A stretch of DNA of 64,000 nt, taken from assembly GCF_013315695.1 (NCBI RefSeq), contig NZ_CP054353.1, one strand, 5' to 3'. Below the pieces are notes generated by a model. That model was not told the origin of the DNA. It made no database searches and worked only from the letters and a program-made list of their open reading frames with translations. This document shows, one piece after another, positions 269-1,155 of this stretch. This DNA comes from Escherichia coli (lineage in GTDB: Bacteria; Pseudomonadota; Gammaproteobacteria; Enterobacterales; Enterobacteriaceae). The translations under genes were made by a program, and so were the position numbers. Each line of letters opens with the position of its first letter. The stretch's first letter is position 1.

Positions 269-499
269 CGTTAAGAGTTTCTCTTCCTGAAACGTTTCGC
301 GGAATGATACTAGTGTAGCCAGCCAATCAGGGAGAAAAATGGAGGAATTATGAAACACTATCGGGAATCGTCTGAATGGCGGGCACATTTGCGAGCACGC
401 ATCCAGTAATAACACAGGAAACTATTTTATCTACGCGTTAGCGATAGACTGCATTCAGGGCAAAAGGAGGTAGGCCGACGATTTCAGCGGGACGCTGAA

Positions 500-640
500 A
501 CGGGAAAGCCCCTCCCGAGGAAGGGGCCTTAAATAAGGAAAGGGTCATGATGAAGCTACTCATCATCGTGGTGCTCTTAGTGATTAGCTACCCTGCATAC
601 TAAGACTACCAGGGCGGGGGAAACCCCGCTCTACCCTCAC
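500..640 (-). ncRNA. sibB: SibB-like antisense sRNA (antitoxin of ibsB); boundaries approximate
   Basis: Inferred from the known Sib/Ibs arrangement: a ~140-nt sRNA fully antisense to the ibs ORF. Ends were not determined from sequence. Confidence 0.35.
547..603 (+). CDS. ibsB: Type I toxin IbsB, 18-aa hydrophobic peptide (MMKLLIIVVLLVISYPAY)
   Basis: ATG at 547 preceded by AAGGAAAGGG RBS; 18 codons plus TAA. Peptide closely matches the Ibs family. Confidence 0.6.
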   Translation: MMKLLIIVVLLVISYPAY

Positions 641-828
641 TCCTGAAATTATGCCTTCACGATAAGATTGTCAATCCGCAGGCTTTGTAGTCTGCGATCC
701 TGCCAGCAAATATTCTTTGCGAGTCGTTACGGAATAATCACCGAGGAAACTATTTTGTTCACGCGTTAGCGATAGACTGCATTCAGGGCGAAAGGAGGTA
801 AGCCGACGATTTCAGCGGGACGCTGAAA

Positions 829-975
829 CGGGAAACCCTCTCCCGGAGAAGAGGGCTTTTAATAAGGAAAGGGTTATGATGAAGCACGTCATCATACTGG
901 TGATACTCTTAGTGATTAGCTTCCAGGCTTACTAAGAACACCAGGGGGAGGGGGAAACCTCTCCCTAACCCTCAC
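829..975 (-). ncRNA. sibA: SibA-like antisense sRNA (antitoxin of ibsA); boundaries approximate
   Basis: Second copy of the repeat unit; same reasoning as for sibB. Confidence 0.35.
876..935 (+). CDS. ibsA: Type I toxin IbsA, 19-aa hydrophobic peptide (MMKHVIILVILLVISFQAY)
   Basis: ATG at 876 preceded by AAGGAAAGGG RBS; 19 codons plus TAA. Ibs family peptide. Confidence 0.6.
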   Translation: MMKHVIILVILLVISFQAY

Positions 976-1155
976 TCCTGAAATTATGTCACTCCGCCCT
1001 TAGTGTCAATCGACGGCTCTCCGTTCTTGCGAGGCGAATAGCAAAATTTTCTGCGCCGCCGGGCCTAATTCTGAAAGTTTCTTCGTTTGCTCTTATTTCA
1101 TTATTGCAATCGGTATGATACCGGACCTCAATAATTCTCTAAGAAAGGATTTCTT

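Follow-up and report, generated by a model that had tools for sequence, protein, structure and literature searches.

The ibs/sib repeat array between mdtA and yegL in Escherichia coli: sequence anatomy, antisense RNA ends and allelic variation

Near the start of the window (the whole 64,000-nucleotide stretch of Escherichia coli contig NZ_CP054353.1 that we analysed), the gap between mdtA and yegL holds two repeat units, each with a very short reading frame for a hydrophobic peptide, and this raises the question of whether these are type I toxin-antitoxin genes of the Ibs/Sib kind, as a first-pass annotation had read them, and how they relate to those of K-12. Our answer is that the region almost certainly comprises the already described ibsB/sibB module on the mdtA side and the ibsA/sibA module on the yegL side. 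The proposed identity as Ibs toxin and Sib antisense RNA is borne out by matches to Rfam SIB_RNA and Pfam Ibs_toxin, by the RefSeq annotation of strain NCTC86 and by the projection of K-12 features onto the window; the locus is already known and ordinary, and nothing new was found in it.

Repeat architecture and toxin reading frames

RefSeq annotation places the array where the first-pass annotation had put it, between mdtA (minus strand, start at 267) and yegL (plus strand, 1156-1815), in an intergenic stretch of 888 bp (268-1155). Two tandem units occupy 408-1009 at a spacing of about 329 bp, and a repeat search recovered them as a direct repeat of 124 nt (407-530 versus 735-858, 89% identical, spacing 328) together with three more segments in register at spacings of 329-335 nt. 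Pairwise alignment of unit 1 with unit 2 gave a mean column identity of 86%, and the earlier description of two units of about 330 bp with almost identical 5' halves holds, with 94% identity in an upstream block (417-502), 76% over the Sib-transcribed part (503-638) and 43%, or no real similarity, in the spacer (675-746). Tandem Repeats Finder reported no repeat over 250-1200 because fewer than two copies of the 329-nt period are present.

The intergenic region is 100% identical to that of E. coli NCTC86 (NZ_CP019778.1) and 90-98% identical to the same locus of most other complete E. coli genomes. Conservation across strains, on which the first-pass annotation had staked its reading, is evident, since the locus is matched in 5,419 of 5,426 complete E. 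coli genomes, with at least 80% of the 888-bp region matched in 5,260 of the 5,426. The mdtA-yegL array is near-universal in the species and varies in copy number from 1 to 3, with one, two or three units seen among nine genomes sampled.

Each unit carries an intact toxin ORF on the plus strand. The ibsB-type ORF (547-603) encodes 18 amino acids, MMKLLIIVVLLVISYPAY (WP_001386901.1, RefSeq product name 'type I toxin-antitoxin system Ibs family toxin'), and the ibsA ORF (876-935) encodes 19, MMKHVIILVILLVISFQAY (WP_010723109.1); both peptides are exactly as first quoted, and RefSeq annotates both ORFs as Ibs toxins at the same positions in the identical NCTC86 record. Both match positions 1-19 of the 19-position Pfam Ibs_toxin profile (PF13956), the IbsB-type peptide at 38.3 bits and IbsA at 50.2 bits against a cut-off of 27, when queried with two in-frame upstream codons (RV) added to reach the 20-residue minimum; NCBIfam held no model matching either Ibs peptide. 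The peptides are very hydrophobic, as had been claimed (GRAVY 2.11 for the IbsB-type, 1.98 for IbsA), and the strong ribosome-binding site noted before both ORFs is present in both units as TAAGGAAAGGGT(C/T)ATG, at 534-545 for ibsB. Both peptides start MMK and keep K3 and L11; in an alanine scan, Salmonella IbsA required a basic residue 3 and Leu11 (bioRxiv 10.1101/2025.05.26.656083).

Comparison of the peptides across strains, an approach the first-pass annotation had pointed to, gave a different outcome for each. IbsA in the window is identical to K-12 IbsA, and its accession recurs in NCTC86, the K-12 lineage and O157. The IbsB-type peptide differs from K-12 IbsB by F15Y, and its Y15 allele is common (see below). 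The earlier remark that the second peptide ends in FQAY in place of a usual FPAY was mistaken, as FQAY is the canonical C-terminus of IbsA and it is K-12 IbsB that ends in FPAY.

We also considered other reading frames in the units. Minus-strand ORFs of 42 amino acids (438-566) and, in unit 2, of 27 and 34 amino acids differ between the units and were set aside as chance occurrences. Nor is the Shine-Dalgarno-like AAGGAGGT at 463-470 followed by a start codon at an appropriate spacing, and it was likewise rejected as a sign of coding.

On either side of the array, the neighbouring sequence has features of its own. The sole sigma-70-like match in 250-1200 (TTCAGA-18-CATAAT, 347-376, minus strand) lies upstream of mdtA, and the stretch 276-311, which immediately precedes the mdtA start, is overlapped by an imperfect palindrome; both may relate to mdtA regulation and not to the ibs/sib units. 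On the other side, both the window (1156-4510) and O157 have yegL, pphC and yegI in direct succession, with stop codons that overlap the next start, whereas a K-12-lineage genome has yegJ directly after pphC instead (L002 3045-3888), and gene order downstream of the ibs/sib array is therefore lineage-dependent.

Sib antisense RNAs and the palindromes within them

On the minus strand, the antisense RNAs could be placed by two routes, Rfam alignment and K-12 features, that the first-pass annotation had in part anticipated. The Rfam SIB_RNA model (RF00113, gathering threshold 56) matched at 674-532 with 141.7 bits (E-value 1e-30) and at 1009-861 with 149.5 bits (E-value 1e-32), each match spanning model positions 1-147 of 147; the first positions of the model fall on the Sib promoter (TTGACA ... 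CATAAT), and it ends before the terminator. The RNA ends were taken from the curated K-12 MG1655 sibA and sibB features projected through the alignment, and sibA, sibB, ibsA and ibsB of that strain map base for base onto 973-830, 638-503, 876-935 and 547-603. SibB accordingly runs over 503-638 (minus strand, 136 nt) and SibA over 830-973 (minus strand, 144 nt), and each spans, in antisense, the whole ORF of its partner and the ribosome-binding site before it. Both projected RNAs start with G, in agreement with the +1G reported for sibA and sibB (PMC12956327).

Upstream of each start, a putative promoter can be read from the sequence. That of sibB lies at 646-674 on the minus strand (TTGACA at 674-669, CATAATTT as -10 region at 653-646) and that of sibA at 981-1009, also on the minus strand (TTGACA at 1009-1004, CATAATTT at 988-981). 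Both align to Rfam model positions 1-29, and the sibB promoter elements are conserved in all Sib copies. A consensus promoter scan listed neither Sib promoter, in the case of sibB because its TTGACA-CATAAT spacing is 15 nt and the alternative at 17 nt, TAATTT, scores 3/6.

Both RNAs fold more stably than shuffled sequences (SibB -58.9 kcal/mol, z -4.2; SibA -58.5 kcal/mol, z -4.9). Each fold has a multibranch domain closed by a GAGGGU/ACCCUU stem (P1), with an unpaired UCCUUAUU (anti-Shine-Dalgarno) 3' of it and then an 11-pair G/C-rich hairpin. The sites of first contact with the mRNA were mapped from SibC, whose TRD1 (+46..+68) recognises a site in the ibsC ORF and whose TRD2 (+99..+115) recognises the translation initiation region, with pairing spreading from these contacts (PMC2943612). 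The TRD1 equivalent is a target site inside the ibsB ORF at 575-597 (plus strand), mapped from SibC +46..+68, and the TRD2 equivalent is the SibB complement of the ibsB translation initiation region TAAGGAAAGGGTCATG at 528-547 (plus strand), mapped from +99..+115 and unpaired in the minimum-energy fold of SibB.

The G/C-rich palindromes had been described as one feature ending each unit, possibly a Sib terminator or a REP-like element. Both palindromes exist, and they neither end the units nor correspond to each other: the first (509-526) lies upstream of the first ORF and has its unit-2 counterpart at 836-855, and the second (944-965) lies downstream of the second ORF and has its unit-1 counterpart at 613-632. 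The terminator reading stands for the first alone. Read on the minus strand, CCCCTCCCGAGGAAGGGG is the SibB terminator followed by UUUCC, and the predicted intrinsic hairpin (505-527, minus strand; GGCCCCUUCCUCGGGAGGGGCUU then UCC) has eleven pairs at -19.3 kcal/mol (z -3.1), at the very place where the 3' end of SibB was projected. A predicted SibA terminator hairpin (833-858, minus strand; core CCCUCUUCUCCGGGAGAGGG then UUUCCC; -17.5 kcal/mol, z -3.5) matches the projected SibA 3' end in the same way, and SibC has a terminator stem, P7 (PMC2943612). The second palindrome is instead the first 5' stem-loop of SibA (944-965, minus strand), which the Rfam consensus structure and the minimum-energy folds alike pair as the first hairpin. 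The U tract of the Sib terminators is short (UUUCC), and a consensus terminator scan left them uncalled on the minus strand, calling the unit-2 palindrome 836-855 on the plus strand only.

That the palindromes are REP-like or other extragenic repeats, unrelated to the Sib transcripts, is in our judgement hardly credible. What speaks for it is only a reader's impression that the inverted repeats are rich in G/C and intergenic. Against it, 505-527 and 833-858 sit fixed at the projected Sib RNA 3' ends, 613-632 and 944-965 are the first hairpin of the Rfam consensus structure, and a repeat search of the region found no copies beyond the unit repeat itself. A REP element is a dispersed palindromic unit independent of its neighbour gene; here all four palindromes keep their place and register within the Sib gene throughout the copies we aligned, the five of K-12 included, and neither Rfam nor other repeat signals were found for such an element, so nothing suggests one.

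Among the records examined, sibA and sibB are annotated only in curated K-12 MG1655, and the PGAP records (NCTC86, O157, ST131 and others) list Ibs CDSs and no Sib ncRNA features. Users of PGAP records without Sib RNA genes will thus miss the antitoxin half of the locus, even where the toxin ORFs are annotated, and the importance of the locus extends little beyond its correct annotation.

Transcription, mechanism and known relatives

The plus-strand transcripts are harder to place, and ibs transcription is the weakest point of the ibs/sib explanation. The upstream block of these ibsA/B-type units (417-502, plus strand; unit-2 counterpart 746-829) is presumably where the ibs promoter lies and the mRNA begins. 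It contains a hairpin, TTTCAGCGGGACGCTGAAA, at 482-500, and all five K-12 copies keep this CAGC...GCTG hairpin. The ibsC mRNA starts (+1) 18 nt upstream of the SibC 3' end (PMC2943612); transferred by alignment, this would put the start of the ibsB mRNA near 483 and that of the ibsA mRNA near 811. Opposite the ibsC -10 element the alignment shows TAGGCC or TAAGCC, a poor match. A consensus scanner run over 250-1200 listed no plus-strand promoter; as the same scanner missed the Sib and the ibs promoters alike, we did not count its output as evidence.

Sequence anatomy, family membership, complementarity, folds and conservation are direct observations in the window, and transcription, repression and toxicity are carried over from experiments in K-12 and Salmonella. 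By this analogy, the plus strand of each unit would yield a short mRNA of about 160 nt with a strong Shine-Dalgarno sequence and an ORF of 18 or 19 codons, and the very hydrophobic Ibs peptide would form a single membrane helix that, when over-made, would depolarise the inner membrane, reduce ATP and arrest growth. Overproduced IbsC depolarised the membrane within minutes (PMC8309996), and Salmonella IbsA lowered ATP and bound Fo subunits a and b (bioRxiv 10.1101/2025.05.26.656083). The minus strand, from its own strong promoter (TTGACA, the CATAATTT -10 region and a G start), would make an abundant Sib RNA of 136-144 nt that would end at the G/C-rich terminator hairpin and be fully complementary to the ribosome-binding site and ORF of the mRNA. 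A loop would make the first contact with the 3' part of the ORF (TRD1 equivalent) and a single-stranded stretch the second with the ribosome-binding site (TRD2 equivalent); as pairing spread, translation would be blocked, the mRNA degraded and the duplex cut by RNase III, and the toxin would therefore stay silent.

The experimental basis for these steps comes from relatives in K-12. Sib RNAs there are about 140 nt long, constitutive and span the whole functional ibs mRNA; repression leads to degradation of ibs mRNA, with the duplex cleaved by RNase III; and the recognition domains, the family's most variable parts, set cognate specificity (PMC2943612). Toxicity of the overproduced peptide and its repression by the antisense RNA have been described for ibsC/sibC and others (PMC2943612, PMC8309996). 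As no other part of the repeat varies as much as the recognition segments, each Sib would act mainly on its own partner. An exception is that ibsA expression is tolerated without SibA in K-12 (PMC2943612), and the pairing is therefore not strictly one-to-one. ibsA/sibA double-stranded RNA has been captured in vivo (PMC7373196), so that both strands are transcribed in K-12.

Some of these facts also fit a decayed relic, in which Sib RNAs are perhaps made, one or both ibs ORFs, especially the Y15 IbsB-type one, are unexpressed or non-toxic, and the repeat persists by drift or gene conversion and not as a working toxin-antitoxin pair. We found no convincing sigma-70 promoter for ibsA or ibsB, K-12 annotation labels IbsB merely a 'putative toxic peptide', ibsA is harmless in cells without sibA/ibsA, and the copy number at the site varies from 1 to 3 among strains. 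Yet both ORFs are intact behind a perfect ribosome-binding site, K3 and L11 are retained, the changes relative to K-12 inside ibsB are four synonymous ones and a single conservative one, and the Y15 allele occurs in at least 3,180 of 5,426 genomes, with the ORF annotated in all matches inspected. The in vivo ibsA/sibA duplex, which implies transcription of both strands in K-12, also argues against a relic, and we regard decay as very unlikely beside two ordinary ibs/sib modules.

Among known systems, the closest are the K-12 modules ibsB/sibB (b4668/b4437) and ibsA/sibA (b4667/b4436), which also lie in the mdtA-yegL intergenic region and share with those of the window their position, order, orientation, unit spacing, RNA ends, promoter, terminator and ribosome-binding site as well as an identical IbsA. 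They differ in residue 15 of the IbsB-type peptide (Y in the window, F in K-12), in five substitutions at 582-597 and in four at 453-462, and these are ordinary allelic differences.

ibsC/sibC, the family member whose workings have been dissected by experiment (Han et al. 2010, PMC2943612), resembles the window units in its P1-closed multibranch domain and P7 terminator, in the single-stranded J1/7 stretch facing the Shine-Dalgarno sequence, in an antisense RNA that fully overlaps the ORF and translation initiation region, and in a hydrophobic peptide of 18-19 amino acids. Its TRD sequences are different, its upstream region is unrelated (the block 417-470 is found only in A/B-type units), and SibC, whose first nucleotide is A, carries an NAD cap, whereas SibA and SibB, which begin with G, do not (PMC12956327). 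The ldr/rdl, zorO/orzO and hok/sok systems are likewise chromosomal type I modules repeated in tandem, in which a small hydrophobic toxin is paired with an antisense RNA antitoxin and duplicated inside a single intergenic region (PMC2887945), but their peptides and RNAs are unrelated to Ibs and Sib, and their antisense RNAs cover the 5' UTR or part of the mRNA only, whereas Sib covers the entire functional ibs mRNA (PMC2943612).

Allelic variation and other features of the window

Relative to K-12, the region 268-1155 has 23 substitutions and no indels (97.4% identical). All five differences in the ibsB ORF (582, 585, 590, 594 and 597; four synonymous plus F15Y) lie in the TRD1 equivalent (575-597), which was defined in advance from the literature; a segment making up 23 of the 888 nt thus holds five of the 23 differences (binomial P = 3e-4). 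This segment is one base apart from the first O157 copy, which suggests allele exchange over independent mutation as the origin of the TRD1 substitutions. A further cluster, noticed post hoc, comprises the substitutions at 453, 455, 458 and 462, which turn K-12 TTGCAT into an ibsA-like TTCAGG and may mark the putative ibsB -35 position. Strain differences pile up in a segment that the literature had identified as a specificity determinant.

Allele frequencies were obtained with exact 31-mer megablast queries against the 5,426 complete E. coli genomes. The 31-mer of the Y15 allele (...ISYPAY-stop, with CCA for Pro16) was found in 3,180 genomes, a figure to be read as at least that many carriers of Y15, and the K-12 ...ISFPAY 31-mer in 2,970; the two are found side by side in many genomes, since the array has several copies. 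The window's own 31-mer haplotype occurs in 14 genomes only, and we rejected the idea that its IbsB-type allele is rare, since this low count is due solely to a synonymous CCT codon for Pro16 and Y15 with the CCA codon is widespread. K-12 IbsB (F15) is thus one of several common alleles.

Among the nine genomes sampled, the B-type peptide has F, Y, W or L at position 15 and L, I or W at position 4. The WP_001386901.1 peptide occupies the yegL-proximal slot in ST131, which is without ibsA; neither ST131 nor N21 has an ibsA-type unit. In strain 2017-02-2CC, an IS421 transposase gene stands directly after the third unit, where yegL would be expected.

The variation could reflect ongoing diversifying selection together with gene conversion that re-assorts Sib/ibs specificities within the array, an idea that we would put forward only tentatively and as rather unlikely; the pattern behind it is plain in the alignments, and selection is a conjectural cause of it. 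Were it true, E. coli lineages would hold non-interchangeable antitoxin-toxin pairings at one locus. Han et al. 2010 and Fozo et al. 2010 already hinted at the idea of diversifying Sib/ibs specificities.

A search for tRNA genes over the window gave none. Elsewhere in the window, the NCTC86 annotation has a RelE/ParE-family toxin gene between yegH and asmA (about 13845-14463, minus strand); an HTH-domain gene that overlaps it comes next, in a toxin-first order that resembles HigB/HigA. Rfam matches at gathering level include a JUMPstart element upstream of the colanic-acid (wza) operon (16575-16613), the second such element in the window, an algC RNA motif near the cpsB/cpsG junction of the colanic-acid cluster (31109-31158, plus strand) and the histidine operon leader (62244-62367, minus strand). 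The other JUMPstart element accompanies galF (40853-40891), and between it and the O15-type O-antigen genes wzx and wzy lie an ISAs1-like ISEc1 transposase gene and a partial ISAs1 copy (about 41127-43192). The gene fnlA (about 46768-47803) is annotated as frameshifted, and the ISEc1/ISAs1 insertion and the fnlA frameshift (about 40853-47803) could affect O-antigen expression in the strain.
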